Shown here one piece after another: positions 13,386 through 49,358 of a stretch of DNA of 64,000 bases (its first letter is position 1; each line of letters opens with the position of its first letter). The position numbers and the translations under genes were made by a program. The DNA comes from Planctomycetota bacterium (GTDB taxonomy: Bacteria; Planctomycetota; UBA1135; UBA2386): positions 4,608,001-4,672,000 of the forward strand of contig OZ245838.1 in the NCBI GenBank assembly GCA_965228735.1. The letters run 5' to 3'. The notes under the pieces were generated by a model, which was given only the letters and a program-made list of their open reading frames with translations, ran no database searches and was not told where the DNA came from.

Positions 13386-13665
13386 GCGGCCGGTCGTGAG
13401 CTGCCAGCGGTAGTCTGGCACGTTCTCGGCGCACGGCCAGCCGATTGTACGAATGGTTCTCTTCTCGAGCACGGGAGACTTGGAGCCGACCTTGCAACAG
13501 TCGAGACGGCAGGGCGTCGGCATCCGTTCGGATGCGTGATCCGCTGATGGCATCGGTGCCTGCCGGCGGCGACCGGAGCGTTTTGGCTGGACTGGGTATC
13601 GTGACCGCTATTGAATCCGGATGGGCTTCGAGTGCCTCGTGGCCGAGGTTGCCGCAAGCCACCAC

Positions 13666-14919
13666 ATGAAGATCAACATCCCGTACGGCCGATCCGCCGT
13701 TCATCCTCTCGAGCTTGACGCGCGGACTCGCATTCAGGTTCTCGAGGCGAACGAAGCGCCGGAGGTCGACGAGGAGCAGGTCATTCAGCACGCGGTTCGG
13801 AATCCGATCGACAGCGAGCCGCTCGAGACCTTTCTCGCGGGGGCGCGGGATGTGCTCGTGATCGTGAACGACGCGACGCGCCCGACCCCGACTGCTCGAA
13901 TCCTCGACTACATCGACAGCTCGCTGCAGCGCGTCGAGCATCGCTTCATCGTGGCGACGGGCGCCCATCGGGCCCCGACCGAGGCGGAGTACCAACGAAT
14001 CTTCGGCGATCGTTACCCGACGATTCGTGGCCGCGTCACTTCGCACGACTCGAAGCGCCGGGAGGACATGGTCGATCTCGGGCACTCATCGAACGGGACT
14101 CCGATCCTCATCAACCGGGCAGCGATCGATGCCGATCGACTCGTGATCATCGGCGGAGTCGTGCCGCACTATTTCGCGGGCTACACCGGCGGCCGCAAGT
14201 CGCTGCTGCCGGGCATCGCGGGGTTCGAGACCATCGAAGCGAACCACCGCCTCGCCTTGCAGTCCTCGGCTCGGGCGCTGGCGCTGCGCGGGAATCCGGT
14301 TCACGAGGACATGGAGGATGCGATTCGCTCGGTCGAGAAACCCGTGTTCTCGATCATGGTCGTGCCGGACAAGAACCACCGGGTGGCTGCTGCAACGGCT
14401 GGCCACATCCATGGATCGTTCGAGCGTGCGGTCGAGAAGAGCAATCGGATCTTCGTCGCGCCGCTGGCCAGGAAAGCCGACATCGTCGTATCCGTCGTCA
14501 AACCGCCGCAGGACATCGACCTCTATCAGGCTCAGAAGGGGATCGAGAACGCGAAGCTCGCATTGAAGGATGGTGGCATCATCATCCTCGTCGCGGAGTG
14601 TGACAACGGCGTTGGTTCGAGCACGTTCGCTGACCTCCTCCGTAGTCGCGAGACGTCCCAAGAGGTCCTCGCAGAGATCGACCGTTCGTTCCGGCTGGGG
14701 TACCAGAAGGCCGGGATGATGGCCGAGATCGATACCTGGGCGAAGATGTGGATCGTGACGGACATCGATCGTGACGAGTTGCAGGGGTTGTTCCTCACCC
14801 CGTTCGGGAGCGTTCAGGAGGCCGTCGACCGCGCTCTCGAGGACAAGGGCCCGGACGCCGAGCTGCTGGTCCTGATGGATGGCGGAATGACGGTTCCGAG
14901 CGTCGGGTCGGGTGCTTGA
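13666..14919 (+). CDS. larA: Nickel-pincer-dependent lactate racemase (LarA) family protein
   Basis: VNDATRPTP, ATGAHR, PHYFAGYTGGRKSLLPG, EANH, DLYQAQK motifs; start ATG 13666 (MKINIPYG). Confidence 0.85.
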   Translation: MKINIPYGRSAVHPLELDARTRIQVLEANEAPEVDEEQVIQHAVRNPIDSEPLETFLAGARDVLVIVNDATRPTPTARILDYIDSSLQRVEHRFIVATGAHRAPTEAEYQRIFGDRYPTIRGRVTSHDSKRREDMVDLGHSSNGTPILINRAAIDADRLVIIGGVVPHYFAGYTGGRKSLLPGIAGFETIEANHRLALQSSARALALRGNPVHEDMEDAIRSVEKPVFSIMVVPDKNHRVAAATAGHIHGSFERAVEKSNRIFVAPLARKADIVVSVVKPPQDIDLYQAQKGIENAKLALKDGGIIILVAECDNGVGSSTFADLLRSRETSQEVLAEIDRSFRLGYQKAGMMAEIDTWAKMWIVTDIDRDELQGLFLTPFGSVQEAVDRALEDKGPDAELLVLMDGGMTVPSVGSGA

Positions 14920-29414: not shown

Positions 29415-30242
29415 ATGAGCGTCATTCCGGATATTCCCGCCATGGTGGCTGACCCACTTCCGGAGGTCGTGCTGACTGGCGTGCGCATTCACGCGATCGA
29501 CCAGCCACGGTGCGTTGCCCGTGTCATGGAGAGCCTCGACGCCGAGCGGGGTGGATGGATCGCGACGGCGAACCTCGACCATCTGCGCCGGTTGCGAAGC
29601 GACGCCGAGTTCCGCCGCGTCTACGACGACGCGGCGCTCGTCGTCGCCGATGGCATGCCGTTGGTTTGGGCGGCGAGACTCCAGGGCACGCCGCTACCGG
29701 AGCGCGTGGCAGGGTCCGATCTGATCCACAGTCTGTCGGCCGCTGCAGCAGAACGAGGGCGTCGTATCTTCCTGGTCGGCGGAGACCCTGGTACGGCGGA
29801 AGCCGCCGCGGCCAAGTTGGCGGCCGACAATCCGGGCCTGCAGGTCGCCGGTACCGACTGTCCGCCGTTCGGTTTCGAGCGTGATCCGGACCAGATGGCC
29901 GACCTGCGGCGCAAGCTGGCCGCGAGCGGCGCCGACCTCGTTTTCGTTGGGCTGGGCTCGCCCAAACAGGAGTTCCTGATCGACGCGATTCATGAAGTGC
30001 TGCCGGCCGCATGGTGGGTGGGCATCGGCATCAGTTTCAGCTTCGTCTGCGGTGAAGTCCGACGGGCCCCGGTCTGGGTACGGCGGGTCGGACTGGAATG
30101 GGCTCATCGCTTGCTGCAAGAACCCCGCCGACTCGGAGCGCGGTACCTCTGGCACGGGCCGCCCTTCGTCATGCGCCTGTTTGCGTCCGCGCTGTTCAGG
30201 CGCTTTCGGCCATCATCGGGCCGAACCCCGAGGAACCGGTAG
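29415..30242 (+). CDS. WecB/TagA/CpsF family glycosyltransferase
   Basis: TANLDH, VADGMP, ERVAGSDL, VGLGSPKQE, RAP.W....GLEW..RL..EP.RL..RY; start uncertain (29358/29415/29442). Confidence 0.92.
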   Translation: MSVIPDIPAMVADPLPEVVLTGVRIHAIDQPRCVARVMESLDAERGGWIATANLDHLRRLRSDAEFRRVYDDAALVVADGMPLVWAARLQGTPLPERVAGSDLIHSLSAAAAERGRRIFLVGGDPGTAEAAAAKLAADNPGLQVAGTDCPPFGFERDPDQMADLRRKLAASGADLVFVGLGSPKQEFLIDAIHEVLPAAWWVGIGISFSFVCGEVRRAPVWVRRVGLEWAHRLLQEPRRLGARYLWHGPPFVMRLFASALFRRFRPSSGRTPRNR

Positions 30243-30351
30243 TCCGGACTGCGATGCGAATTCTCTGCAATCATCCTCGCGCAGGTCACTCGCCCCGGCG
30301 GCTTCGGCTGCAGGCGCGCTCTGCTCCACGTTCGGGCATGACAGCTCGGGG

Positions 30352-31260
30352 ATGGCAATCGTGACCCTTCCGACCTTCCTCGTGATCGGCGCCGAGAAGG
30401 CCGGGACCACCGCGCTGCACGCGGCTCTCGATCGCCATCCGCGGGTGTTCATGAGCAACCCGAAGGAACCCTCCTTCTTCCTCTCCGAGGATTCGCGTTA
30501 TCTCGAGCAGGATCTGATGGGGCAGCCCCACGGCGACATCCGGACCCTCGCGGAGTACGAGGCTCTCTTCGCGGCCGCCGCGCCGGGGCAGGCGATCGGA
30601 GAATCCTCGCCCTGCTACCTCTACAGCCCCGACGCCGCCCGCTTCATCAAGAGCCTGATCCCCGACGTGCGCATCGTCGTGATGCTGCGTGATCCGGCGG
30701 AGCGGGCTTTCTCGCAGTTCACGTTCAATCAGCAGCGTGGTTGGGAGCCGCTATCCAGGACCTTCCAGGAAGCGCTCGCGCTCGAGGACGAGAGGGTGCG
30801 GGCGAACTCGATGTGGGCGTTCCACTACGTCAATCGTGGCATGTACGCGCGTCAGCTCGCGCCATACGTGGAGACGTTCGGTGACCAATTGCGGGCCTGG
30901 GCCTACGACGAGTTCGTCAAGGATCCTGCGAAGGTGCTGGGCGAGATCCACGATTTCCTGGGCGTGGAACGTGTCGATCTGGAAGAGCCCGCCCAGAGGA
31001 AGAACGTCACCTCGCTGCCACGGCTCGGGATCATCCGCCAGTTGCTCGATCGCCCGAATCCCGTGAAGGCCCTGGTCGGCCGTCTGATTCCGACGCACTT
31101 TCGGCGAGCCATGGGCGCGAGACTGCGGCAGTGGAACTCCCGCCGCCCGGAGCGCGACGACAGTTCGATCGCGTCGCTGAGGCCACGCTTCGTGGACGAC
31201 ATCGAGGCGCTGGCGTCCGGGTTGCTACCTGGAGCGCGGCGGTGGTTGGAGCGCGACTGA
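30352..31260 (+). CDS. Sulfotransferase
   Basis: IGAEKAGTT (5'-PSB), KEP.FF, GESSP.YL, LRDPAERAFS (3'-PB); ATG 30352. Confidence 0.9.
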   Translation: MAIVTLPTFLVIGAEKAGTTALHAALDRHPRVFMSNPKEPSFFLSEDSRYLEQDLMGQPHGDIRTLAEYEALFAAAAPGQAIGESSPCYLYSPDAARFIKSLIPDVRIVVMLRDPAERAFSQFTFNQQRGWEPLSRTFQEALALEDERVRANSMWAFHYVNRGMYARQLAPYVETFGDQLRAWAYDEFVKDPAKVLGEIHDFLGVERVDLEEPAQRKNVTSLPRLGIIRQLLDRPNPVKALVGRLIPTHFRRAMGARLRQWNSRRPERDDSSIASLRPRFVDDIEALASGLLPGARRWLERD

Positions 31261-31264
31261 GCCG

Positions 31265-34141
31265 TTACGCGGAGCGTTCGTGACCCGCAGTCTCTTCGCG
31301 GATGGCGGCCGCGAGGAGTGCGGCGTGGTCGAGCATGGTGTTGTGGTTCCCGGGTACCCACTCGACGCGCAAAGTACGGAAGCTCTTGCCCCAGCCGTTG
31401 TCTGGATCCATGACCCGGACGCCCGAGCCGTTGACCGACGTCGCTCTCGTGCCGGGGCCCAGCCAGACCTTCCGTTCGTCTCGGGGGCGGAAGAGCAGAA
31501 CGGGGATATCCAGACTCGGCGGCGAGAACGCGGCCGCGGCAACCTTGAATGCGTCTCGAATCCGGATCGAGCGGATCTGGCTCGGTGTGAGTCTCTCGGC
31601 GGGCTCTCGGTTGGCCGGGTTGCTCGGCGAAGCGTCGTCGTTCCGCCCCAGGCTGTGGCGGGCCTTCGTCAGCACTGCCTTGGAGATGCCACCCTCGTGC
31701 AGCAGCCGGCGGATCTGGAACATCCGGCGTTGCCAACCCTGCAGACGGCTCGTGGGGTGGCGGGTGTCGATGAGAAACAGCCCGGAAACGGTTTCGCCGG
31801 CGTCAATGAGTTGTTGCGCCATTGCCATCGCTATCAACCCGCCTCCGGAGTAGCCGCCGAGGTGATACGGCCCGTTGGGTTTCACCTGGCGGATCTCGCG
31901 GAGGAAGTCGCGAGCGGCGTCCTCGATCGTCTCGTGTGGCCCGTCATCTCCGAGAACGCCGCGGTACTGCAGCCCGAACACCGGCCGGTCCTCGAACTCG
32001 CGTGCGAGCCGCGCGAGCGTGACGACGTTGCCGTTGCGGCCCCCGACGACGAACAACGCGTGCGTCAGGTCCGGTTCCTGGGCTGCGGCCGCGTTGATCG
32101 GAACGACGAACCGATGCTCACGCTCCGAGGCTCCGGTGAGACGTGCTCGCACGAATCGGGCCAGGCTCCGGATCGACCCGGCTTCGAACAGCGTCGAGAT
32201 CGGCAACTCGAGCCCGGTGTGATCCAAGATTCTGGCGAAGACGCCGACCGCGATCAGCGAGTGCCCGCCGGCTTCGACGAAGTCGATGTCCGCATCGACG
32301 GGGCGGCCCAGGGCGTCCCGGAACGCCGCCGCGATCACCGTCTCGAGTTCGTCCAGATGCTGAACGCCGTTCGTTGACGGCGTTGCGGGGGAGTCGCGCG
32401 CGCTGTCGCGGTCCGCGAGCAGTGCGGCTGGGACGCTCAGCTCGAAGGACCGGTCGAGCGCACCGCCGTGCCTGCTGGTTGCGGATCTGCCCGACGTCGG
32501 CTTGGAGGCCGCGCTCTTCGGTGATCGGGTGGCGGGTTCGTTCGTGTCGGGCGTGACCTCGCCAGCCCGGGAAGCGTCCATCTCGAGCGTTCCGTGTTCT
32601 GCGATCGTTGCACCCGGCGCGATGGACCGCAGGAAGTCGAGTGCGGGCTCATTGCGATCGGTCTCTTTGTACTCGAGACCGACCTTGCCGAGACCTCGAT
32701 CGCGGGCGATGTCACCGAGCCGCTGCAGCATCCGGTGCTCGACTCCCCGTCCGAGCGCGCGGCAACTCAGCAAGAACGTCGGAGCGACAACGGCATCCCC
32801 GTTCACCCGGTAGATGACCAGGCCGACGATGCCGTACTCACCGAATCGGTCGCTGGCACCGACGAGGAACCCGCGATCTCCGGAGGCCAGATCGGACTCG
32901 AGCTCGTCGACTTTCCGCCGCCGAACGGAGAGGTGGAACTGGTTCGTGCGCAGTGTCAGTTCCGATGCGCGATCCATCCGCTCCGAGTCGATGTCGTGGA
33001 ACGTCAACCGCAGCTCCAGGTTGGCCAGGAACTCGCCGAGCGACGGTGCCGTATCGCGGTTCGCCTCGCGCGACAGATGGGCGCGGTAATACTCGACGCG
33101 GCTGCCGGAGGCCGCATCGTTGCGTAGATCGAACGCCCAATGGTGATCGCAGAATCGCACCATGTCGGCGTCGTTGTCCGGAAACCTCGTGACCGTCACG
33201 CCGGGGCAGTTGGCTTCGACCTCGGCACACTCGACCGGGTTGTCGTCGACGAAGATGAAGCTGTCCGTCCCGAGGCTGAGCTTCTCCCCGATCTCCCGGA
33301 TGTTTTCGGATTTCGGTCGCCAGTTGACCGCGGCGATGGTGACCGAGTCGCGCGGCAGGACCATGTCGTCGCGCTCTGCCCAGACACGCTCGACGTCCTC
33401 GGCAGAGTTCTTGGAGCACAGACCGATGACGACTCCGGACTCGGCCTGCGTGACGAGAAGGCGGTGCAGGGCGAGGTGGCCCTCGGTCAGTTCGATTCCC
33501 GTCGGCCCGACCTCGCCGCAGACGCCACGCCACAGGGTGTTGTCGCAATCGACGATGATGGCCTTGTGCGTTGGCTTGGTCCGCCGGTGCACTGCTCGAG
33601 CGAGTGCGGTGGCCCAGGCCGCATAGCCCGCCGGGGTGAACGGCATGGCACCGATCTTGTCACTCGCCGGGTCGTCGAACCTGGGCGTGGGGTAGGCGGC
33701 CTTGACCTCGTCTTCGACGATCAGGGTCACGTTCGGACTCTGGTCGATCGAGGCGCGCGCCCGTTCGACGATCGAGCCCCATTCGGCAGTGCTCTGACCG
33801 GTGCCGCGGCAGAGCCCCAGAATTGTTGGCGACGGCTGACGGGCCGCGGTCGCGATCAACTCGACAATCTGATCGGGGCCCGAGTCCTGCCAATCCGAGG
33901 GGCGGACGAGCATGGCGTGCAGTCGGTCCTCGGCGTCAGGCCGGGCTGCGGACGCGAGCAGGGTCTGGAACACCTGCCCGAACCCGTCTTCCTCGACTGC
34001 CCAGGGCATGCCGAGAGCCGTCGCCCAATGGGCGAGCAGTTCGCGGATCGGTTGCACCGAGAAGGTGCCACCGACGACGACGGTGAGTTGCTGCGGAGAC
34101 GACAAGATGGGCGAATTCAGGAGCTGGCCGACTATCGGCAA
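31265..34141 (-). CDS. FkbH-like (HAD-IIIC) glyceryl transferase fused to a carrier domain and a thioesterase
   Basis: VDCDNTLW.G, SKN, NWRPKS, FVDDNP.EC, RTNQF, DRFGEYG, LLSCRALGRGVE; carrier DFVEAGGHSL; TE GGYSGGG and VPGNH. Confidence 0.88.
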   Translation of the reverse strand: MPIVGQLLNSPILSSPQQLTVVVGGTFSVQPIRELLAHWATALGMPWAVEEDGFGQVFQTLLASAARPDAEDRLHAMLVRPSDWQDSGPDQIVELIATAARQPSPTILGLCRGTGQSTAEWGSIVERARASIDQSPNVTLIVEDEVKAAYPTPRFDDPASDKIGAMPFTPAGYAAWATALARAVHRRTKPTHKAIIVDCDNTLWRGVCGEVGPTGIELTEGHLALHRLLVTQAESGVVIGLCSKNSAEDVERVWAERDDMVLPRDSVTIAAVNWRPKSENIREIGEKLSLGTDSFIFVDDNPVECAEVEANCPGVTVTRFPDNDADMVRFCDHHWAFDLRNDAASGSRVEYYRAHLSREANRDTAPSLGEFLANLELRLTFHDIDSERMDRASELTLRTNQFHLSVRRRKVDELESDLASGDRGFLVGASDRFGEYGIVGLVIYRVNGDAVVAPTFLLSCRALGRGVEHRMLQRLGDIARDRGLGKVGLEYKETDRNEPALDFLRSIAPGATIAEHGTLEMDASRAGEVTPDTNEPATRSPKSAASKPTSGRSATSRHGGALDRSFELSVPAALLADRDSARDSPATPSTNGVQHLDELETVIAAAFRDALGRPVDADIDFVEAGGHSLIAVGVFARILDHTGLELPISTLFEAGSIRSLARFVRARLTGASEREHRFVVPINAAAAQEPDLTHALFVVGGRNGNVVTLARLAREFEDRPVFGLQYRGVLGDDGPHETIEDAARDFLREIRQVKPNGPYHLGGYSGGGLIAMAMAQQLIDAGETVSGLFLIDTRHPTSRLQGWQRRMFQIRRLLHEGGISKAVLTKARHSLGRNDDASPSNPANREPAERLTPSQIRSIRIRDAFKVAAAAFSPPSLDIPVLLFRPRDERKVWLGPGTRATSVNGSGVRVMDPDNGWGKSFRTLRVEWVPGNHNTMLDHAALLAAAIREETAGHERSA

Positions 34142-38302: not shown

Positions 38303-39025
38303 TCAGAAGTTCCCCACGGGGAAGGCGATCGGCAGCGGCAGGTTCTGGCGGATGTACTTGTCGACCCAGACGTTGATCTTGTCGATCATGTTGTTCGGGA
38401 CGTAGATCACGTCGTGCGGTTGGAGGAACACTGGTGTGCCGTCCACCCAGTTGTCGAGTCCGGCATCGAACTGCCAGACCTGGTGCCTTCGTTCGACTGG
38501 GAGCCAGCGGATCAGCATCGCTTCTTCGAGGAGTGCGGATCCCTTGACCGGCCCTCCGGCGCGTCCGATGGCCTCCAGGAAGGTAAGCTCACCGCGCCCG
38601 AACGCGACGACGCCCGGTATGTTGACCTCGCCGATCACCGTGACTTCGCGCGGCGCCGGGTCGATGATGTCGACGGACACGGTGCCCGCGCCCACCTCGC
38701 TCTGGTTGGCGTAGGCTTCGCTGACCTTGGCGCCGAGCGCCCCGACGGATAGTCCCACCAGCTGGAGCTCGCCCACGAACGTGAACGTCGCGCGGCCGTC
38801 GTCGCGCACGATGGTTTGGTGGTCCCACTCCGGCTTCTGCGGGAACCGCACACCGATCGTATCACCCGCGACGACGAACGCCTGTGGGGAGAGCGTCGCG
38901 TTGATGTCGGGAGCAACGGCACGCAAGGCCGGGAACGAGCAGCCACTGGCCAGAGTCAACGCCAGGAGTCCGAGAACTCGGCCCCCTGCTCGACGTGCCA
39001 ACGAATCACGGTTGCTCTCACGCAT
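38303..39025 (-). CDS. wza: Polysaccharide export lipoprotein (Wza/Poly_export-SLBB)
   Basis: Lipobox LASGC; GD.I.V, VR.DG, VIGEV..PG, EAI..AGG, LQP.DVIYVP. Confidence 0.85.
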   Translation of the reverse strand: MRESNRDSLARRAGGRVLGLLALTLASGCSFPALRAVAPDINATLSPQAFVVAGDTIGVRFPQKPEWDHQTIVRDDGRATFTFVGELQLVGLSVGALGAKVSEAYANQSEVGAGTVSVDIIDPAPREVTVIGEVNIPGVVAFGRGELTFLEAIGRAGGPVKGSALLEEAMLIRWLPVERRHQVWQFDAGLDNWVDGTPVFLQPHDVIYVPNNMIDKINVWVDKYIRQNLPLPIAFPVGNF

Positions 39026-39086: not shown

Positions 39087-39992
39087 CTACGAATCGGCGC
39101 GGGGAGTCGTTCGCGCTTCTCTGCCCGCGAGCCGTTCTGCCACCGTCCGGAGCTGACAAAGGTCGCGCGGCCGCGCCAGGCGGGAAACGCGGACGGAGCG
39201 CGCCAGTGCCACGCAGCTCTGCATCAGCGATTCGGGGCCGCTGACGCCGCTGAGAAGTTCGGGGAAGTACGAGTGCCGCAGCAACGCGACGCCCGCGGTG
39301 AGTCCGCGGAGCGGCGTCGGTTCGACGCTTCCGGTCGAACTCAGAACGTAGACGTGGCGCAGCCGGACCGGGCTGTCGGCACAGGATTCCGCGGGTACCC
39401 TGGCGACGCGCTTCTCGGGGCGGTCGCCGGGGCCGATGGGCCGGTTGTCCGGTACGACCTCACGGGTGGCCACCGGTCCGGGTGCGACCATTGGCTCGGT
39501 AGCCGTGGGGTCGATTGCCGCGATGTCGTCCGTCACGAACCGGCAGCCGAATTCGACCATGAGCCTGGCCAGCGTCGACTTGCCGACCCCGGAATCGCCA
39601 GCGAACGCGATGCCGGCCATCGTCGCGGGCTGCGCGACGCAGCTCGCGTGCAGGCAGAAGAATCCGCGTTGTTGCAGGAGCAGCCCCATGGCGGGGCCGG
39701 CGATGAACTGTGCGAGGTCCTGACTCGGCTCGACGTCTACGCCGGATGGCGTCACGGTGATCGATCGCCCGTCACGGACGCGCAGCGCGCCGACCCCGGC
39801 GCGCACGATCGTCGAGTCCTGCGGCGACAGCCGGTGCCAGTCGCCGCTGTGATCGGGCGGCGCAGCCCCGTCGGCAGGGAGTGACGAGGTTTCGATCGTG
39901 ACGTCCGTTGCGTCACGCGAGGATTCCGGCCGCAGGCTGGGGAGCGGTACTTCCGAACGGATGGACAGTCCGTATGCGCGGTATGTCGGCAC
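39087..39992 (-). CDS. HPr-kinase-like lasso peptide kinase
   Basis: Y.AYGL.I.SE..LP start, LHASCV, Walker A GDSGVGKST, VTDD; immediately downstream of the lasso precursor. Confidence 0.82.
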   Translation of the reverse strand: MPTYRAYGLSIRSEVPLPSLRPESSRDATDVTIETSSLPADGAAPPDHSGDWHRLSPQDSTIVRAGVGALRVRDGRSITVTPSGVDVEPSQDLAQFIAGPAMGLLLQQRGFFCLHASCVAQPATMAGIAFAGDSGVGKSTLARLMVEFGCRFVTDDIAAIDPTATEPMVAPGPVATREVVPDNRPIGPGDRPEKRVARVPAESCADSPVRLRHVYVLSSTGSVEPTPLRGLTAGVALLRHSYFPELLSGVSGPESLMQSCVALARSVRVSRLARPRDLCQLRTVAERLAGREARTTPRADS

Positions 39993-40066
39993 GGACGAAC
40001 TGCCTCAACGACCGAGCGCGCTCGGTTGAACTCGAACGGTCCTGGGCAGAGCCAGCTGGCCGAGCG

Positions 40067-40237
40067 TTAGCTCGAGCCCGGGTTCGCCCACGGGTTCCAA
40101 CCCGATCCCTGGCCGTTGAAGAATTCGCCCCAGCGGCCGCCAATCCATTGCGTGAGTTCTTCGACTCGGCCTTGGACTTCGATGGATGGCGTTTCGTAGG
40201 TGCGGTCGGTGTCGTTGGAGTGAGTCTGATCGTTCAT
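40067..40237 (-). CDS. Lasso peptide precursor (56 aa): MNDQTHSNDTDRTYETPSIEVQGRVEELTQ | WIGGRWGEFFNGQGSGWNPWANPGSS
   Basis: Leader YETPSI (YxxPxL-type), G, Thr at -2; acceptor Glu at core position 8; lies between cyclase and kinase. Confidence 0.88.
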   Translation of the reverse strand: MNDQTHSNDTDRTYETPSIEVQGRVEELTQWIGGRWGEFFNGQGSGWNPWANPGSS

Positions 40238-40343
40238 CAGAGAGCTAACCAGGGTAGAAGGGTCTGGCGCAGGGGCCATCAGAAGATACCCCAGCAACGG
40301 GGTGTGGGAAGGGGGGTTGCGCCTTTTCTTCGAGCGCCTCGGC

Positions 40344-42209
40344 TCAGCGCGAGCGGACCCAGAATCCGAGCAAGACGCCGAGCCAGAGCGCCATTCCGTC
40401 GGACTCCGCGATGCCACCGGGGGGTAGCGCCAGGATTCGGCGGAGTGCCCCGAGGTCCACGAACTCATCGAGGCCCGGAGAGTTGCGGAGTAGCGAATCG
40501 ATACGATCTCGGTCTGCGACCAGGAATCCCTGCTCGAACTGGTCACCCCAATGTGACTTGTGAACGCGAGTCCGGATTGCCTCGGGAACGATCCCGCGCA
40601 AGGCCCGGCGCTGGATGGCTCGATCGTAGCCGCCATGGAGTCGTTGCTCGGGTGGCAGCCCGTAGCAGAATTCGATCAGCCGGTGGTCGAAGTAGGGGTG
40701 CCGGTGATCGAGCCCGAACGCCGCGCTCGCCTTGTCGTGGACCTCGAGCGAGTGCGCGATCAGCGGGGTCGTCAGGGCGCGGTGGTGGGCCTCGCGCAAG
40801 CTTCGGGGCGGGCGGTTCGCCTCGACGACCGCCTGGCGATCTCGCATTCGGGCGGTCCAGTCGACTTCACGCGCAAAGCCGGGCGCGATGCTCGATGGCA
40901 CGGCCCCGAGTTCTCGTCGCCAGGAGCGGGTCACGGAACGGACCACCGGCGCGAGTCCGAAGTGCCAGAAGAACCGCTTCGTCGACTGCCGAAACACGCC
41001 GGCGAGTTGCCGGCACTCGCGCACGGCGCGAACGATGCGGCCGCGGCGCACGAGTTCGGCGAGCCAATCCGTGCCGTGACTGACGGTCGTGTCGCCATCG
41101 ACGCCGTCGATGACGGCTCGGATCCCGAGTTCGCGGGCGCGCCGGGCGAGTGACCAATAGACGTAGAGGTTGGGCGCGCAGAACGGTTCTTCGACCCGTT
41201 CGAGCATGGCGTCCACCTCGCGCAAGGGGCTCGTGCTGCTCGCCGAGACGAACTCTGCCGGCCACGGCTCGTTCGGTTCGTCGTCGCCGTTCGCCGCGAG
41301 GACCAGGTCGATGTACTGCCGCTCGTCGATCCGCGGGAAGTCGGGGAACAGCGCCGACAGCGTCGTGATCGGATGCGCTCCCCAGGCTTTCCGATTCGCG
41401 TGCGCGAGCCGGACCAGGCCTGACGAATCCAGGCCGCCGCTCAGCAGGATCGCCGTCGGCTCGTCGCGGTGCAGGCGGCAGCGGAGCGCTTCCGTGAGCG
41501 TGTCGCGGAAGCGCTCGGCATAGCTCTGGTCATTGGCCAGCTCGACGCGGTGATCCGGGTCGAGCGCCCAGTAGCGGCGCAGGGACTCCCCGCTCTCGCG
41601 GACGGTCAGGGAATGGCCGGGTGGCAGCCGTCGAACGTGCTCGTAGAACGTGCGGTCGTGGTCGGCGAATACCTGGCCGAGGTAGTCCGCGATCTTGCCG
41701 TTGTCGAGATCACGCGGCACGTCGGCGGCGTCGAGCAGCGGGCCGATCTCCGATGCGAAGACGAAACGCTCGGGCGCGAGGTGGTAGTAGAACGGGCGCG
41801 TTCCGAGGCGGTCTCGCGCGCAGAACAGCTGACGCTCGAGGGATGACCAGATGGCAACCACGAAGTCACCGAACAGGTGCTCGGGGCAGCTCTCACCCCA
41901 GCGTTCATAGGCCCGCAAGACGATGTCGGCGGGGGTCGCATCGGCCGGGGCGTCGAGTTCGGCTGCGAGGTCCGAGAGGTTGTCGATGCGGGCCGCGATC
42001 GCGGCGATTCGACCGTTGCGCTGCGCGATCGCGGCCTCGGACCCGGTCGGGGCGAGCACGCCGAACGCCGCGCCGGCCGTGTTCGTCGCGAGGCGAGCTG
42101 CGCCGCGATGCGCCATCCGACCGGCCATTGCGGCAATTCGGTCCCGGTCGAGGGGGCGTTCGTCCCGTTGCCAGGCTCCAACGAGCCCGCTGCTGATGAT
42201 CCCGATCAT
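40344..42209 (-). CDS. Lasso peptide cyclase (asparagine synthetase-like, C protein)
   Basis: RIDN..DL, GDF..AIW, RDRLGTRP, LSGGLDSS, G.DGD, HPYFD.RL.EF; no N-terminal catalytic Cys; start ATG 42209 inferred. Confidence 0.88.
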   Translation of the reverse strand: MIGIISSGLVGAWQRDERPLDRDRIAAMAGRMAHRGAARLATNTAGAAFGVLAPTGSEAAIAQRNGRIAAIAARIDNLSDLAAELDAPADATPADIVLRAYERWGESCPEHLFGDFVVAIWSSLERQLFCARDRLGTRPFYYHLAPERFVFASEIGPLLDAADVPRDLDNGKIADYLGQVFADHDRTFYEHVRRLPPGHSLTVRESGESLRRYWALDPDHRVELANDQSYAERFRDTLTEALRCRLHRDEPTAILLSGGLDSSGLVRLAHANRKAWGAHPITTLSALFPDFPRIDERQYIDLVLAANGDDEPNEPWPAEFVSASSTSPLREVDAMLERVEEPFCAPNLYVYWSLARRARELGIRAVIDGVDGDTTVSHGTDWLAELVRRGRIVRAVRECRQLAGVFRQSTKRFFWHFGLAPVVRSVTRSWRRELGAVPSSIAPGFAREVDWTARMRDRQAVVEANRPPRSLREAHHRALTTPLIAHSLEVHDKASAAFGLDHRHPYFDHRLIEFCYGLPPEQRLHGGYDRAIQRRALRGIVPEAIRTRVHKSHWGDQFEQGFLVADRDRIDSLLRNSPGLDEFVDLGALRRILALPPGGIAESDGMALWLGVLLGFWVRSR

Positions 42210-42323
42210 GGAAACGTCGCGCCCCGGAGGACAGCGGCCGGAGCATACTGGCCGATGTTGCGTTACGCTTCCCGGGCCTTGCCGAGGGAAGTTCGGCACA
42301 TGTGGGTCGACCCGACGCAGCGC

Positions 42324-42623
42324 ATGACAGGAGACATCGGACTCAACTCGGTCGTTCGAGCAAACATTCGTCAGCTTTCGGTCGAGATCGACGGCGAGAC
42401 CGTCCTGCTCAACTTCGACGACGGATTCTACTACTCGATCAACTCGGTCGGAGCGCGGATCTGGACGCTGGTCCAGGACGCGACCCGAGTGTGCGACGTG
42501 AAGGCGGCGTTGCTTTCGGAGTTCGACGTCGACTCGGCCAGATGCGAGGCCGACCTGCTGGCGCTGCTCGCCGACCTCGAGGCGAAGAACCTCATCGAGG
42601 TACTCGATGCGGATCCTGCGTAG
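42324..42623 (+). CDS. PqqD-family RiPP recognition element (lasso B1)
   Basis: 99 aa; EIDGETVLL...G.YY.IN.VGARIW..., EFDV....CE.DL..LL..L....LI. Confidence 0.9.
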   Translation: MTGDIGLNSVVRANIRQLSVEIDGETVLLNFDDGFYYSINSVGARIWTLVQDATRVCDVKAALLSEFDVDSARCEADLLALLADLEAKNLIEVLDADPA

Positions 42624-43053
42624 GTTCTGGCGGCTGTCGTTCTCCGAGAAGCTGATGCTCGGCAAGGCGTGGGGGTTGCTCGCCGTCGTGCGAAGCAGCA
42701 TGTGGATCGCGGGGTTCGCGCGGACCAAGCGCTGGGTCGATCGTCGACACGCGCGCGTGGAACGACTCGTGCGGTCGCGCCAGGAGCCGCATCGGATCGC
42801 CCGAATGGTCGAGATCGCGAGTCACTTCTTCCCTGGCGGTCGGCATTGCCTGAGTCGGGCGATGGTGCTCGAGGTGCTGCTGCGCCGCCGCGGCTACGAC
42901 GCCAAACTGGAGATCGGTGTCGCGTTGGCGGATGCACCCGTCCAGAGCGGGTCACGGCTCTCGGCGCACGCCTGGGTCACGCACGGTGACCGGATCCTTC
43001 TCGGTGGAGCCGAGGCTCCCGACTTCAAGCGGTTGACGCGGTCGGGTCGGTGA
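42607..43053 (+). CDS. Lasso peptide leader peptidase (B2, transglutaminase-like)
   Basis: HCLSRA (Cys), L.IGV, AHAWV (His); overlaps the RRE gene. Confidence 0.9.
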   Translation: MRILRRFWRLSFSEKLMLGKAWGLLAVVRSSMWIAGFARTKRWVDRRHARVERLVRSRQEPHRIARMVEIASHFFPGGRHCLSRAMVLEVLLRRRGYDAKLEIGVALADAPVQSGSRLSAHAWVTHGDRILLGGAEAPDFKRLTRSGR

Positions 43054-44051
43054 CTCGTTCGACGGACAGCTTCTCCGCGGCGGACGCGCCGCCTCGCATC
43101 CGCGTCACCGCGCTGCAGAAGCGCTACCCGCGGAACCGCAATCTGCTGCGGTTCCTGCGCGCGCCGCATCGCCGCGACTACACGATGGCGCTCCGTGGGG
43201 TCGATCTCGTGATCCCGCAGGGCGGCATCTACGCGCTCCTCGGCCCCAACGGCGCTGGCAAGACGACGCTACTGAAAGCGCTCTCGGGTCTGCTCCTGGC
43301 CAACTCTGGCACGATCGAGATCGATGGCATCGACCTGACGAACGAGCCGCGGAAGTTGCGCAATCGCGTCGCGCTGGCCGTGTGCGACGAACGTTCGTTC
43401 TACTGGCGCATCAGCGGCCGCGAGAACCTGCGGTTCTACGCGACGCTCAACGGGCTCGAGGGCGCGGCGCGCGATCGCCGGATCGATGAATGCCTCGCGA
43501 TGGTGCGGTTGGGGTCGGCTGGCGATCGGCGCTACATGGAGTACTCGGCGGGCATGCGGCAGAGCCTCGCGCTGGCGCGCGGGCTGTTGCTCGATCCGCC
43601 GATCCTCCTCATGGACGAGCCAACGCGGTCGCTCGACCCCGAGGCCACGGCGGCGGTCCACGATGTGATCACCGGGTTGCAGGCTGCCGATCCGAGCCGC
43701 GTGTTCTTCTACTCGACCCATGACCTGGCCGAGGCGGAATCGATCTCGAGTGATGTCATCGTGCTGCGGGGCGGGCGCATCGTGATGCAGCGGAGCCTCG
43801 CTCGCGAGGCCGGCTACGTCTACCGCGTGCGCACCCATCCCGAGCTGCCCGAGAGATTGCTCGACGACATCGACGGGCTGCAGGTGCTGGGCAGCTCGGA
43901 AGCCGGCACGGTCGTCGAGTTCGCCGAGTTCCGGACGCTCGATGCGGTGCTCGCGCGGCTCGCCGAGCGTCGTTTGCAGGTGCGCGAGGTCGCAGAGCAG
44001 CGGTCGCGGCTCGGCGAACTGTATCGCTCGAGCGCGGAGGCGCAGCGATGA
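43050..44051 (+). CDS. ABC exporter ATP-binding protein
   Basis: GPNGAGKT, YSAGMRQ signature, LLMDEP, STH. Confidence 0.92.
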   Translation: MTRSTDSFSAADAPPRIRVTALQKRYPRNRNLLRFLRAPHRRDYTMALRGVDLVIPQGGIYALLGPNGAGKTTLLKALSGLLLANSGTIEIDGIDLTNEPRKLRNRVALAVCDERSFYWRISGRENLRFYATLNGLEGAARDRRIDECLAMVRLGSAGDRRYMEYSAGMRQSLALARGLLLDPPILLMDEPTRSLDPEATAAVHDVITGLQAADPSRVFFYSTHDLAEAESISSDVIVLRGGRIVMQRSLAREAGYVYRVRTHPELPERLLDDIDGLQVLGSSEAGTVVEFAEFRTLDAVLARLAERRLQVREVAEQRSRLGELYRSSAEAQR

Positions 44052-44863
44052 GTCTGCCACGCACGGCTGTCGCGTTCCTGCGGCGCGAGTTCCTCGAAGA
44101 GGCGTCCTACCCGCTCAAGGTCGTGTTCGGGTTCGGCGCGGCGATCGTGAGTATCGGGTTCCTCGTAATCTTCGCCGACTTCGTCGGCGCCACGATGGCC
44201 GGCAGCGGTGAAGGGCGAATGGCACACGGCTACCTGCCGTTCGCGCTCGTCGGACTGAGCTTCCACACGCTGCTCGATACCGCTTTGCGCGAACTGAGCT
44301 CGCGGATTCGCCGGGCGCAGATGCAGGGCACGTTCGAGGCGCTGCTCGCGACGAGCACGCCGCTGCCCGTGCTCATGCTCGCGCTGCCGCTCTACCCGTT
44401 GCTGCGGACGTGCTCGCGATTCGTGTTGCTGCTCTTGTTCGGGTGGCTCGTCCTGGATGTGCCGCTCAGCTTCGGCAACTGGCCCGTCGTGCTCGTGGCG
44501 TTCGGGCTTGCCGTGACCGTCTTCACGGCGATCGGTCTCGTGTTCGCCGGCCTCACGGTCGTGTTCAAGCAGACCGAGCCGCTGATCGCCGTCTTCAACG
44601 CGTCGTGTTTCTTCCTCGGTGGCGTGATCGTGCCGTCGGGTGAGTTGCCCGCGGTGCTGCAATGGGTCGGCGTGCTGTTGCCGATCACCCCGGCGCTCGA
44701 GGCGTTCCGGATCGCTGCGATCGATGGTGGCGACTTCGCGGCTGCAGGGCCGGTGCTCGGACAACTGGCCGTCTTCGCGGTCGTCCTCGTGCCGTTCAGC
44801 GTCGTCGTGTTCCGCTGGTCGATTCGGCAGGCGCTTCGCGACGGCAGCCTCGGGCACTACTGA
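44048..44863 (+). CDS. ABC-2 type exporter permease
   Basis: About 6 TM segments, GTFE.LL..S.P, GG...P...LP..L; translationally coupled to the ATPase. Confidence 0.88.
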   Translation: MSLPRTAVAFLRREFLEEASYPLKVVFGFGAAIVSIGFLVIFADFVGATMAGSGEGRMAHGYLPFALVGLSFHTLLDTALRELSSRIRRAQMQGTFEALLATSTPLPVLMLALPLYPLLRTCSRFVLLLLFGWLVLDVPLSFGNWPVVLVAFGLAVTVFTAIGLVFAGLTVVFKQTEPLIAVFNASCFFLGGVIVPSGELPAVLQWVGVLLPITPALEAFRIAAIDGGDFAAAGPVLGQLAVFAVVLVPFSVVVFRWSIRQALRDGSLGHY

Positions 44864-44874
44864 CCGGTCGCGCC

Positions 44875-45537
44875 CTACAACGGCGGCCAGGCCTTGACCG
44901 CCATGAGACACCCATCGCCCACCGGCACGATGATCGAGTTGAGGCGCGGCTCGTCCTGGACCAGCTTCAAGAACGCCCGCAGGCCCTGCGCGCGCGGCGT
45001 GTCGTTCTTCGGATCGTCGATCTCGCCGCCGTCGAGCACGTTGTCGGCGAACAGCGTGCCGCCGGGTCGCAGGATCCGCATCGCGTGCGCGAAGTAGTCG
45101 GGGTAGCCCTCCTTCTCCGCGTCGATGAACACGGCGTCTGCCGTGCCGTCCGCGTGCTGGTTCAGGGTCTCGTGCGCGTCGCCGACGATGATCTGGATCT
45201 TGTCCTTCTGCTGGGATTTCAGGATCCAGTCCTGGGCGAAGGCTGCGTGGATCGGCTCGAGCTCGTGGGTGACGACGGTGCCGTCCGCGGCGAGCCCGCG
45301 CGCCATCGCGATCGCCGAGTAGCCGCCGAGGGTGCCGACCTCCACGACCCGAACGGCCTTGGTCGCCGCGAGCGCGATCTGCAGGAAGGCGGCCTGCTCG
45401 GGCGCGATCTGGATCTCCGGCAGGCCGGCTTCGACCGCGGCGGTGCGCAGATCGCGCAGCAGCTCGTCCTCGGGAATGGTCTGGCCGCGGATGAAGTCGA
45501 AGAGCGGGGCGTCGACCGGCGTGCTCAGCTTGGACAT
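44875..45537 (-). CDS. SAM-dependent O-methyltransferase (COMT/CCoAOMT family)
   Basis: EVGTLGGYS, FIDAEK..Y, LRPGG..ADN, PVGDG. Confidence 0.92.
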   Translation of the reverse strand: MSKLSTPVDAPLFDFIRGQTIPEDELLRDLRTAAVEAGLPEIQIAPEQAAFLQIALAATKAVRVVEVGTLGGYSAIAMARGLAADGTVVTHELEPIHAAFAQDWILKSQQKDKIQIIVGDAHETLNQHADGTADAVFIDAEKEGYPDYFAHAMRILRPGGTLFADNVLDGGEIDDPKNDTPRAQGLRAFLKLVQDEPRLNSIIVPVGDGCLMAVKAWPPL

Positions 45538-45566
45538 GCGCGCAAGGTAGCGCTATCCATGCCGCA

Positions 45567-46133
45567 GTGAACCCTGGTTTCGAACCCGCGGCGGCCAAGA
45601 GCCGGCTGCTCGAGCTCGTTCGCGAGCGCGCCTACAAGGACGGCCTCGATATCGTGCTCGCGTCCGGCAAGCGCTCCGACTTCTACATCAACGGCAAGAA
45701 GGTCTCGCTGCACCCCGAAGGCCTCTGGCTGATCGCGCGGCTCCTGCTGCACAAGCTCGAGGCCTATCCCGACATCACCGCGGTCGGCGGGCTGACGCTC
45801 GGCGCGGATCCGTTGGCCAGCGCGGTCGCGGCGCTGTCGTTCGAGACCGGCCAGAACCTCAAGGCGTTCCTCGTTCGCAAGGAGGCGAAGGGGCACGGCA
45901 CCGGCTCGCGCATCGAGGGTGATCTCGAGAAGGGCGAGAAGGTCTGCGTTCTCGAGGACACGGTCACGACCGGCGGCAGCGCGAAGAAGGCGATCGACGC
46001 GGTGCTCGAGGTCGGTGCGGAACCCGTCGTCGTGATGACGATCGCCGATCGCGAGGACCCGGACGCCGAGCCGTTCCGCCAGGAGTGGAAGGTCGAGTCG
46101 CTCGTGACGCTGAGCGAGATCCGCAACGGCTGA
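45567..46133 (+). CDS. pyrE: Orotate phosphoribosyltransferase
   Basis: LASGKRSDFY, GGLTLGADP, VRKEAKGHG, LEDTVTTGGS. Confidence 0.95.
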   Translation: MNPGFEPAAAKSRLLELVRERAYKDGLDIVLASGKRSDFYINGKKVSLHPEGLWLIARLLLHKLEAYPDITAVGGLTLGADPLASAVAALSFETGQNLKAFLVRKEAKGHGTGSRIEGDLEKGEKVCVLEDTVTTGGSAKKAIDAVLEVGAEPVVVMTIADREDPDAEPFRQEWKVESLVTLSEIRNG

Positions 46134-46148
46134 TGCAGAGGCCCCGGC

Positions 46149-47540
46149 ATGCGTGACGTCGTCGCGATCGTGCCGGCGGCCGGGCTCGGCGAACGGATGG
46201 GCGCCGACAAGGCGTTGCTCGCGCTCGGCGAACGCACCGTCGTCGAGCGGGTCGTGGCCACGCTGCGCGCGGCTGGAGTGAGCGACGTGCTCGTCGTGCG
46301 GCGACGCGGCGCGGAACCCCTGCCCGATGGGCTCGCGGCGACCGTGGTCGAAGTCGAACCCGGCGGTGAAATGGCAGACAGCTTGCGCGCGGCCCACGCG
46401 CGGTTGCCTTCGGGCGCTGGGCGAATCCTCGTGCTGCCGGTCGATCATGCGCTCGTCGAGGCCGACACCGTGCGGGCCGTCGTCGCCGTGCTCGACGATG
46501 CCGCCGACGCGCATGTCGCGTTGCCGACGTACCGCGATCGCCCGGGCCATCCGGTGGCGTTCGAGCGCGCGGTGTTCGACGAGATCACGGCCGATGGCGC
46601 CGTTCTGCGCGACCTGGTTCGGCGCGACCCCGACCGGGTGCGGACCATACCGACGGCGAATCCCTGGGTGCGCGCGGACCTCGATCATCCGGAGGACCTG
46701 CGCGCCGCGCGCGCGGCGCTCACGCAGGTGTCCCCCCTGTCGACCGTCGAACTGATGGCGCGACATCGCAGCCGGCGTTCGTTCCGCGACGCGCCGGTCC
46801 CGCGCGCGCAGATCGAACGACTCGTCGATGCCGCGCGCCACGCGTCGACGTCGAGCTACATCCAGACCACTACCGTGATCGCGGTGACCGATCCGCAGCA
46901 GAAAGGTGAGTGCGCGCGGCTCTGCGGGGGGCAGCAGCAGATCGTCGAGGCGCCCGTGTTCTTCGCGCTGTGCGCCGATCTGCAGCGGCTGGCGCGCGCG
47001 TGCGAGCGGCACGGGGCGACGTTGCAGAGTCAGAGCCTCGAGCTGTTCTTGCAGGCCACCGTCGACGCGGCGCTCGTCGGCCAGAACCTGCTGCTCGCGG
47101 CGGAGTCCGAAGGGCTCGGTGGTTGCATGATCGGCGGCGCGCGCAACCACCCGATCGAGCTCGCGCAGCTGCTCGGGTTGCCGGCCCATGCGTACGTCGT
47201 GTTCGGCATGACGGTCGGTGAGCCGATCGACGATCCGGCCGCGCGTGGTCGCATGCCGCTGACCGGCGTGCTGCACTTCGAGGGCTACGACCACGACGGC
47301 GTCGATGCGGCGCTCGCCGGCGCCGACGAGGTGATGAACGACTGGGCCCGCCGCGCGAACGCGCAGAGCGCCGGGTATGGCGGTCGACCCGTCGACGAGA
47401 CCAAGGGGTGGGCCGCACGCATGGCGCGCATGTGGGGCGAGGACGGTCGCTACGCCATCGCGCGTCGGACGCTCATGGCCGAGCTGCGGCGGCTGGGCTT
47501 CGGCCTCGCCGACGAATCGGCGGAGACGGGCGATGACTGA
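46149..47540 (+). CDS. Fusion of a MocA/MobA-like NTP transferase and an NfsA-type nitroreductase
   Basis: N-half PAAG.G.RMG.DKALL, PVDH, GHPV, DLDHPEDL; C-half HRS.R.F, ASTSSY.Q, DAALVGQN...AAES.GLG.C.IGG.RN. Confidence 0.85.
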   Translation: MRDVVAIVPAAGLGERMGADKALLALGERTVVERVVATLRAAGVSDVLVVRRRGAEPLPDGLAATVVEVEPGGEMADSLRAAHARLPSGAGRILVLPVDHALVEADTVRAVVAVLDDAADAHVALPTYRDRPGHPVAFERAVFDEITADGAVLRDLVRRDPDRVRTIPTANPWVRADLDHPEDLRAARAALTQVSPLSTVELMARHRSRRSFRDAPVPRAQIERLVDAARHASTSSYIQTTTVIAVTDPQQKGECARLCGGQQQIVEAPVFFALCADLQRLARACERHGATLQSQSLELFLQATVDAALVGQNLLLAAESEGLGGCMIGGARNHPIELAQLLGLPAHAYVVFGMTVGEPIDDPAARGRMPLTGVLHFEGYDHDGVDAALAGADEVMNDWARRANAQSAGYGGRPVDETKGWAARMARMWGEDGRYAIARRTLMAELRRLGFGLADESAETGDD

Positions 47541-48171
47541 CATCGAAGTCCTGCACCTCGACGACTTCCTCGCGATCGTGAACAAGCCCGCGGGCGTGCT
47601 CGTCGTGAATGCCCCTGGCCGTCGCGGACCGACCCTCGTCGACAGGATGCGGCGGCAGCTCGGCGGCTACGTCGAGCCCGTGCACCGGCTCGACGAGGAC
47701 ACGACGGGGGCGATCGCGCTGGCGCGAAGTCCGGAGGGCCGTTCGGCGCTCGAGGGCGTGTTCCGGCGGCACGCTGCCGAGCGCGTCTATCTCGCGCTGA
47801 CGACGGCGGCGCCGTCACCGCCGGCAGGCCGGATCGAATCGCAGCTCAAAGCGGATGATGCGGGGGTGATGCGCGTGGTGCCGTCGGGCGGCGAACGCGC
47901 CGTGACGCACTACGAGACGGTCGAAAGGCGCGGCCGCTGCACGCTCGTGCGATGCGAGCTCGAGACCGGTCGCCGCAACCAGATCCGCGCCCACCTCGCG
48001 GCGCTCGGCTGCCCGGTGGCCGGGGATCGCAAGTACGGCTATCGGCGCCGGGCTGACGAGCGCTTCGGGCGTGTCATGCTGCATGCCTGGCGGCTCGCGC
48101 TTCGGCATCCGATTCTTGGCAACGAAGTGGACGTAACGGCGGTTGCCCCGGAACCCGACCTACGGCCTTGA
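47533..48171 (+). CDS. RluA-family RNA pseudouridine synthase
   Basis: VNKPAG, VHRLDEDTTG, ETGRRNQIR.H, GD.KYG, LHA; ATG 47533. Confidence 0.93.
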   Translation: MTDIEVLHLDDFLAIVNKPAGVLVVNAPGRRGPTLVDRMRRQLGGYVEPVHRLDEDTTGAIALARSPEGRSALEGVFRRHAAERVYLALTTAAPSPPAGRIESQLKADDAGVMRVVPSGGERAVTHYETVERRGRCTLVRCELETGRRNQIRAHLAALGCPVAGDRKYGYRRRADERFGRVMLHAWRLALRHPILGNEVDVTAVAPEPDLRP

Positions 48172-48263: not shown

Positions 48264-49358
48264 TTGAACGATCATCTACGCGCGATCCTGAAAGGAGTCT
48301 TCGGTGACGGCTCGGCCTCCCAGGCGGACGAGTTTCGGGCGGCCTGCAGCCGTGTACGGCCCGCGGACTGGGGCGGTTTGTTGCCGGAGCTGGAGAGTCA
48401 CCGCCTCGCGCCCCTGGTCGGCTACACCGCCCGCCGGCTCGATCTCGAGTCCGCCATTCCGTCGGCGCCACGGGAGCGGTTGCGGGAGTCGTATCGCGCG
48501 GCCTTTTTGTTTGCCGAACTACAGTCTCGAGCTCTGCGCGACATTCTGGTGGCCCTGCGCGCTGGCGGGGTCGAGCCGATCATCTTCAAGGGCCTCGTGC
48601 TGAGCGGCGCGTTCTATCCCGATCGAGGGGCCCGGCCGATGGTCGACGTGGACTTCCTGGTTGCGGTTTCCGAGCTGAAGCGCACGGTCCGCGCGCTGCG
48701 AAAGCTGGGCTACACGCGACGCATTCGCGATGGTGTCGTGGGGCCGAATGGGTTCGTCAACCCGTTCGGTGTCGTCATTGATCTGCATTGGCAATTCGAC
48801 TTGTTTGCCCCGGACCAGCATGCCGAGATCACTGAGGACCGCGCGATCCGAGAACTCGGAGAGCATCCGATTCGCTCGTGGGAGCCCAACGCGATGCTCG
48901 TCCATCTCGTGTACCACCTCGTCGGACATCGCGAAGGCACCGGGATCAACCTCGGCTGGCTCGTCGACATCGGGTTCCTCGTCCGTTCCGATGGCGATCG
49001 CATGAACGTCGACGCGATTCGTCGGCTCGCGCCCACCGATGCCTGCTTCGCGATGGTCTGGCGCATTCTCGCGTTCCTCGAACGCGACTGCGGTGTCGAA
49101 CTTCCGGCGCACCTCGCCCAGCAGGCGGCGCTTTACGAACCGCTCTCCCTGCCGCGCATCCTGCGCGAGAGCCGGCTTCGCCCCTGGGGCCTGCCCGGTC
49201 TCGTCGGTGCCGGACGGTTCCTGTTCCGGCGCGTGTTCGGCGGGTCCACCAAGCGTCGCAATCCGACCTTGACCGACCTCGCGCTCGCGATCACCGACCG
49301 GATCCAGGACCGCCGCGCGGACAGCCGCGCCATCGCGACCGTGCGAACGCAGTCTTGA
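48264..49358 (+). CDS. Nucleotidyltransferase family protein (NTP_transf_5 type)
   Basis: FKG..L...YP..G.R.M.DVDFLV, IDLHW, W..DI motifs; TTG start. Confidence 0.82.
   Translation: MNDHLRAILKGVFGDGSASQADEFRAACSRVRPADWGGLLPELESHRLAPLVGYTARRLDLESAIPSAPRERLRESYRAAFLFAELQSRALRDILVALRAGGVEPIIFKGLVLSGAFYPDRGARPMVDVDFLVAVSELKRTVRALRKLGYTRRIRDGVVGPNGFVNPFGVVIDLHWQFDLFAPDQHAEITEDRAIRELGEHPIRSWEPNAMLVHLVYHLVGHREGTGINLGWLVDIGFLVRSDGDRMNVDAIRRLAPTDACFAMVWRILAFLERDCGVELPAHLAQQAALYEPLSLPRILRESRLRPWGLPGLVGAGRFLFRRVFGGSTKRRNPTLTDLALAITDRIQDRRADSRAIATVRTQS

Follow-up and report, generated by a model that had tools for sequence, protein, structure and literature searches.

A Trp1-family lasso peptide cluster with a likely modified C-terminal tail in a Planctomycetota genome, and loss of the cyclase among its relatives

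Introduction

Why would a peptide family keep the enzymes that modify the tail of a lasso peptide where the enzyme that ties the knot has been discarded? The question is raised by a gene cluster in a 64,000-nucleotide stretch of DNA from a Planctomycetota bacterium (contig OZ245838.1, positions 4,608,001 to 4,672,000; "the window") and by the relatives of that cluster. A sequence-only reading had described positions 39087-44863 as a complete lasso cluster composed of a precursor, a Cys-less cyclase, a recognition element (RRE) for RiPPs (peptides made on the ribosome and modified after translation), a B2 peptidase and an ABC exporter, with the 26-residue core less one water as its product. Models and motifs confirm each of these genes and thus the cluster itself, but the list was not complete: it omitted a kinase gene, K, within those coordinates and a nucleotidyltransferase gene, N, outside them. 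On balance, we favor a reading in which the product of the cluster is a lasso peptide of 26 residues, predicted to close a Trp1-Glu8 ring. Its C-terminal Ser would likely receive a phosphate and then probably a sugar, and the peptide would likely leave the cell as a companion to the adjoining surface polysaccharide.

Results

The precursor gene A (40067-40237, minus strand) encodes 56 amino acids, a 30-residue leader followed by the 26-residue core WIGGRWGEFFNGQGSGWNPWANPGSS (nucleotides 40147-40070; Glu8 codon 40126-40124; terminal Ser codon 40072-40070). As the sequence-only reading had noted, this open reading frame (ORF; 40237-40067) is nested in a longer one of 189 amino acids (40636-40067), which overlaps the cyclase gene in a different frame. 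The leader carries the YxxP motif and a Thr at position -2 (residue 29), and with 21.9 bits the precursor exceeds the cut-off of 19 set for NF033521, the lasso leader model; a strict leader pattern searched in six frames of the 7.19-Mb genome matched precursor A only. A cut after Thr(-2)/Gln(-1) leaves Trp1 as the first core residue, and since Glu8 is the sole acidic residue of the core, Trp1-Glu8 is the sole ring possible. Because synonymous changes relative to two relatives (9 and 11) far exceed amino-acid changes (0 and 1) in core codons 1-20, the core is plainly under purifying selection at the protein level. The precursor had been called unannotated; its exact sequence is already a called protein, and one homologue bears the source label "putative RiPP precursor". 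A literature search that was thin on subscription journals found no paper with this core, and large lasso surveys may list such precursors.

Directly behind the precursor on the same strand lies K (39087-39992, minus), which encodes a 301-residue HprK-like peptide kinase (PF07475, expectation value [E] 2e-6, and HprK_rel models, all below cut-off) and which also adjoins the precursor in related loci. Its alignment contains the complete motif of His, GxxGxGKS and Asp-Asp, the residues given as catalytic in lasso kinases (PMC10368454); among the sequences of solved structures it found weak HPr kinase matches only. N (48264-49358, plus; 364 amino acids; PF14907, 143 bits) lies 3.4 kb from the exporter and is the sole PF14907 gene of the genome. 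It is an intact gene in which the KG, DxD and His residues are invariant, and in a quick tree it groups at 100% with the kinase-facing N genes of Trp1-family clusters; the N orthologue faces the kinase directly in L048, L049/L050 and L072-L076. A structure model of N (predicted local distance difference test, 92) matches ANT(2'')-Ia (4xje; Z 11.7, root-mean-square deviation 3.4 over 164 residues), tied with MenT1 (Z 12.2), and FKRP scores lower (Z 6.9). This fold likeness does not reveal the chemistry, and a search of solved-structure sequences with N gave no match. Between the exporter and N lie four genes (44875-48171, plus) for a phosphoribosyltransferase, a MobA-like/nitroreductase fusion, a pseudouridine synthase and a 220-amino-acid ORF without a Pfam or NCBIfam match, which we take to resemble an O-methyltransferase. 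They were considered as tailoring genes and rejected, having no match in any related locus.

Genes A, B1, B2, C, D, K and N together with a conserved C-terminal Ser are the gene set of pseudomycoidin, which carries phosphate and one or two hexoses on its last Ser (PMC6993621). With K, N and the terminal Ser in place, the product is likely a phosphorylated or phosphoglycosylated lasso peptide, and the plain 26-mer less water proposed by the sequence-only reading is likely an intermediate or minor form. The computed monoisotopic masses are 2832.26 for the ring, 2912.22 with phosphate, 3074.28 with phosphate and one hexose, and 3236.33 with two hexoses. Likeness of N to PsmN, for which ANT(2'') is the named template (PMC6993621), rests on PF14907, synteny, the tree and the fold. 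By analogy with paeninodin and pseudomycoidin, K would phosphorylate Ser26 on the linear precursor, B1 would bind the YxxP leader, B2 would cut after Gln(-1), C would activate Glu8 with ATP and close the ring on the Trp1 amine, and N would be needed for one or two hexoses on the phosphate; every chemical step rests on homology. The ABC-2 pair would then export the product alongside the surface polysaccharide. Going by the relatives, lasting selection would act on the modified tail, and the ring would be an accessory that probably adds stability.

The cyclase C (40344-42209, minus; 621 amino acids) has an AsnB fold without the N-terminal AsnB Cys, its N-terminus being Met-Ile-Gly, and scores 501 bits against NF033535 versus 207 against asn_synth_AEB. 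In a 37-row FastTree it joins 14 other Cys-less cyclases of lasso clusters, separate from 22 AsnB-like rows (100% local support), so that its distinction from true AsnB enzymes holds; its nearest rows are cyclases from three other Trp1-Glu8 clusters. A search of solved-structure sequences with C returned no lasso cyclase, the best match being an AsnB-like hydroxyamidotransferase. The RRE, B1 (42300-42623, plus; 107 amino acids), matches PF05402 (PqqD) with 62 bits and NF033536 with 63 bits, below the cut-off of 80. The leader peptidase B2 (42607-43053, plus; 148 amino acids) matches NF033537 with 78 bits, above the cut-off of 33, as well as PF13471, and the Cys and His motifs of its catalytic triad are seen. 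The ATPase (43050-44051, plus; PF00005) and permease (44048-44863, plus; PF01061) of the ABC-2 exporter have counterparts in related clusters that are 45-61% and 40-62% identical, respectively. The whole genome holds one lasso-type cyclase and one B2 above cut-off. A second AsnB-like gene in the window (23855-25792, minus) has the N-terminal Cys, groups with true AsnB and is an amidotransferase of the polysaccharide locus.

Homologues of the precursor were collected by a word-seeded search (9) and a profile search of 1.84 billion representatives (22 matches); P0033 and P0035, which are repetitive proteins, and P0043, a leader-only match, were removed before counting, leaving a family of 28. 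Trp1, Trp6, Glu8, Phe9, Phe10, Trp17 and Trp20 are invariant among the word-seeded homologues, all of which end in Ser, and the 10 closest precursors all share Thr(-2) and Glu8, as expected of the proposed cleavage site and ring. Across the family, Trp1 is found in 27/28, the terminal Ser in 25/28 and an acid at positions 7-9 in 22/28, always at 8; the leader Tyr, Pro and Thr are invariant across 27 aligned precursors. Trp1 is therefore less rare than had been implied, two characterized examples being known besides. The terminal Ser is present in all six precursors without an acceptor and in 19 of the 22 with one, and WxxW in 5/6 and 16/22, respectively. Since WxxW is kept in members incapable of forming a ring, its conservation needs no ring, and the assignment of Trp17 and Trp20 as steric plugs is unsupported; Phe9 and Phe10 follow the ring-bearing members better. 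The family is sparse: with a wider profile, matches came from 11 of 339 genomes in the order (some to the leader only) and from 3 of 59 in another class, and with a narrower one from 3 of 401 across the phylum. Several members are labeled Planctomycetota by their source.

A lasso cyclase lies beside the cluster or on its contig in 6/6 testable Trp1-Glu8 genomes (G000, G675, G677, G119, G718, G719); the L048 contig is too short to judge and was not counted. In G119 (L055 with L099 and L100), a Trp1-Glu8 precursor with a long Gly tail lies beside B1, C and N, with the kinase and B2 on other contigs. Other arrangements were also seen. Precursors of cyanobacterial style at L056 (9280 and 10665) and L031 (6315) lie beside a cyclase with Asp10 as the only plausible acceptor, which implies a 10-residue ring or a shifted cleavage site. 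The Nitrospira-type loci L037, L038, L040 and L045 have an RRE, cyclase, kinase and N, no B2 match, and precursors that end in Cys-Leu, not Ser.

No lasso cyclase was found in half of the full-length B2 genomes of the order. B2 is found in 16 of 339 genomes, in full length in 12, and in neither congener of the window genome. A lasso-type cyclase (E below 1e-100; three candidates scored per genome) is present in six of the 12 (G000, G023, G157, G675, G677, G482). Their precursors have Asp or Glu at 7, 8 or 10; in both precursors of G157 and one of two in G023 the acid is only at 10, outside the usual 7-9. With all candidates scored, the other six (G674, G578, G579, G452, G559, G436) showed no lasso cyclase and only generic AsnB, the best E being 3e-29 versus 1e-88 and 1e-189 for true cyclases, in genomes that are 69-94% complete. 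Their eight precursors have no acid at 7-10, and all eight end in Ser. RRE, B2, K and N are retained in all six, with intact catalytic motifs where checked (B2 and N in five, K in six). No replacement modifying enzyme was found among 95 selected neighbor proteins of related loci. A Fisher test on a 7 versus 6 table was not used, as the genomes are kin and the table omitted the ambiguous L050 and G462; in G462, at a contig edge, the precursor carries Glu8 and no cyclase was found, and in three f3 genomes B2 is matched only in part and a clear precursor is lacking. In one cyclase-less cluster (L078, 11472-14687), an IS110 transposase and a reverse transcriptase lie between the kinase and N.

Direct evidence of loss comes from a pair of loci. 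In L073, a 1.86-kb cyclase gene lies between a gene for a 160-amino-acid protein and B1; in L050, a metagenome contig, the counterpart of the 160-amino-acid gene (48% identical) is 190 bases from B1 with no cyclase remnant, and the remaining locus is collinear with L073. L050 is a clean cyclase deletion. The ring region appears to decay by degrees: the L050 precursor has Leu1 and keeps Glu8, in P0026 Glu8 is gone, and in the G674 precursor part of the ring has been lost. In a 15-row tree of K, B2 and N, a single clade of cyclase-less rows was rejected (approximately unbiased test, p 1.5e-5; p 2e-50 for the four Trp1-derived rows), and at least three cyclase changes are needed. This tree leaves out G436, G119, G482 and L048, its outgroup loci were chosen via the cyclase, which biases the root towards presence, and the G674 contig stops exactly at the expected cyclase position. 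Because relatives without the cyclase keep the tail-modifying enzymes, the tail may matter more than the knot. The same thin literature search found no description of B2-type cyclase loss inside a lasso family; a large lasso survey demanded a local cyclase, and cyclase-less clusters would thus go unlisted there.

On its minus-strand side, the cluster runs into polysaccharide genes. A Wza-type export gene (38303-39025, minus; PF02563, SLBB) is the first gene of a polysaccharide locus (about 9000-39025) and completes a C-A-K-wza run with gaps of 106, 74 and 61 bases. Next in the run come genes for deacetylases and glycosyltransferases, and further on a flippase, a Wzc-like gene and more transferases. 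We infer that C, A, K and wza share a transcript; a promoter scan of this setting found nothing. The genome has two Wza genes, and the chance of one lying beside the cluster is ~0.8%. Nine of the 12 full-length B2 genomes have a Wza gene within 15 kb and G436 has one at ~25 kb, the short contigs of G674 and G675 are flanked by Wzc-like or glycosyltransferase genes, and all 12 clusters of the order sit among polysaccharide genes.

The polysaccharide locus also holds genes for a 958-residue fusion of an FkbH domain, a carrier protein and a thioesterase (31265-34141, minus), with a gene resembling nonribosomal peptide synthetases at the matching side of the L073 cluster, and for a LarA protein of the lactate-racemase family amid glycosyltransferases (13621-14919, plus). 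A sulfotransferase gene (29992-31260, plus), which L074 has too, lies 8 kb from the kinase; sulfotransferases have been reported beside some Firmicutes lasso clusters, and this one is more likely polysaccharide-related.

Several points weigh against the favored reading. Three of the 28 family precursors lack the terminal Ser, and K could target another Ser, since BsfK and LppK phosphorylate Ser3; yet core position 3 here is Gly. Four unrelated genes split N from the rest of the cluster, lppN deletion in a heterologous host changed nothing (PMC13381572), and PsmN may need a host enzyme. The cyclase is below the NF033535 cut-off of 525 and has a longer branch than its sisters in the FastTree. 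Because unmodified pseudomycoidin is a branched ring and not a threaded lasso (PMC6993621), threading is not assured. As for the polysaccharide link, the 12 genomes are kin and not 12 independent events; the window Wza query, a weak single-query test, found no match around G119, G718 and G719, nor in 15 further loci, cyanobacterial and Nitrospira ones among them; and the scattered contigs of G119 speak against its generality.

These points feed different alternatives. One is that the polysaccharide locus is a mere landing site for a mobile RiPP cassette with no functional tie to the peptide, in keeping with the patchy occurrence of the cassette (B2 in 16 of 339 genomes and in neither congener) and with the Trp1 clusters of another class that have no Wza match nearby. 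Against it, four different gene orders place wza directly next to the cassette and on its strand (K-wza in the window, wza-B1 in G452 and G559, wza-wzc-B1 in G482), and the same association with joint up-regulation has been reported in Bacillota (PMC13381572). We regard a mere landing site as doubtful, though a serious contender.

A second concerns the sugar. K may act while N, in its displaced position, has ceased to work on the peptide or depends on an absent partner or donor, and the product would then be a phosphorylated-only lasso of the paeninodin type. Paeninodin is made without N, the lppN deletion had no visible effect, and N here stands 3.4 kb off. Set against this are the intact, invariant residues of N, its status as the sole PF14907 gene and its company with K in relatives, which make a sugar-free product rather unlikely.

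Could the ring already be dispensable here, the product being mostly a linear or branched, unthreaded phosphopeptide as in the cyclase-less relatives? The window is sister to two cyclase-less clusters in the B2 tree (96/92), cyclase losses recur, pseudomycoidin unthreads, and C falls short of its model cut-off. C nevertheless has a complete open frame, carries the SGGLDS motif for ATP binding and is 48-50% identical to its sisters, and Trp1 and Glu8 are unchanged amid 9-11 synonymous changes, compared with 12 amino-acid changes in core codons 1-20 of a cyclase-less relative. We therefore find this improbable. Least probable of all is a plain, presumably bioactive Trp1-Glu8 lasso, locked by Trp17/Trp20, for which A, B1, B2, C and D would suffice. 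In its favor are the presence of these five core genes and the purifying selection on the ring region, but it leaves unexplained the intact kinase directly behind the precursor, the terminal Ser and the WxxW of acceptor-less members, and fits poorly with the reported lack of antibacterial activity of paeninodin and pseudomycoidin (PMC6993621).

Discussion

The favored reading, a Trp1-Glu8 lasso peptide with a phosphorylated and probably glycosylated tail, places the window close to systems already described. Pseudomycoidin (psm, Bacillus pseudomycoides; PMC6993621) shares A, B1, B2, C, D, an HprK-like K and an N resembling ANT(2'')-Ia, and its core ends in Ser; its ring is Ala1-Asp9 versus the predicted Trp1-Glu8, and the window differs further in its Trp-rich core, two-gene ABC-2 exporter, displaced N and Planctomycetota-type host. 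Paeninodin (pade; PMC6993621, PMC8498205) shares the kinase, which in paeninodin acts on the C-terminal Ser of the linear precursor. As described, paeninodin has no N, a WxxP leader (PMC13381572) and an unrelated core, whereas the window has N and a YxxP leader. The window thus works like the paeninodin type but, given its YxxP leader and homologues labeled Planctomycetota, falls outside the strict paeninodin clade with its WxxP leader and Bacillota host. The bsf cluster of Bradymonas sediminis (PMC10368454) has A, B1, B2, C, D, K and N, a Gram-negative host and the same kinase motif, but has Ile at -2 and Ser3 phosphorylation, unlike the Thr(-2) and C-terminal Ser of the window. Fusilassin and cellulassin (10.1101/2020.11.25.399105) share Trp at core position 1; they are actinobacterial with a Trp1-Glu9 ring and no kinase or N in the available description, whereas the window core would close at Glu8.

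The linear polyphosphorylated peptides (LPP; PMC13381572) share with the window an RRE, K, N, an exporter, a lasso-like YxxP leader and capsular polysaccharide loci. They lack a cyclase, as do the six relatives, whereas the window has one. They also use a signal-peptidase-like protease and a Ser3 phosphosite and are described as restricted to Bacillota. The window and its cyclase-less relatives instead use the lasso B2, core position 3 of the window is Gly, and the relatives, products of repeated loss within a lasso family, keep the C-terminal Ser; no signal-peptidase-like leader peptidase was found among the neighbor proteins scanned in related loci.

Trp1 (fusilassin, cellulassin), the K and N tail chemistry (pseudomycoidin) and linear analogues in capsule loci (LPP, 2026, Bacillota) are thus already known. 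What this locus adds is both cyclase states within one peptide family, itself an uncharacterized Trp1 family. It amounts to a natural experiment, in which near-identical cassettes with and without the cyclase retain the tail, K and N while Trp1 and Glu8 decay stepwise. One published proposal is that the C-terminal sugar serves mainly to lock the threaded ring in place (PMC6993621); this idea is disfavored because the tail genes are kept where the ring cannot form. The locus further provides a subfamily of Trp1-Glu8 cyclases that could be engineered, along with a lasso system of Planctomycetota origin; among the literature matches listed there was no characterized lasso peptide from this phylum and nothing relevant on N-terminal Trp lasso peptides. 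It is less exciting for its Trp1 than the sequence-only reading held, and more so for its tail and repeated ring loss.

The role of phosphorylated lasso peptides and LPPs is stated as unknown (PMC13381572). We offer one answer as a speculation that we consider unlikely: the Ser-phosphate-sugar tail could be the working part, which primes the Wza/Wzc-exported polysaccharide, anchors it or partners it structurally, and the Trp-rich body would keep the tail at the cell surface. The ring would be optional armor, discarded at least three times, and its loss would have given rise to a separate class of linear phosphoglycopeptides, processed by B2, which genome mining anchored on the cyclase would miss. 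If true, such a working tail would explain the purpose of the paeninodin-type and LPP peptides.

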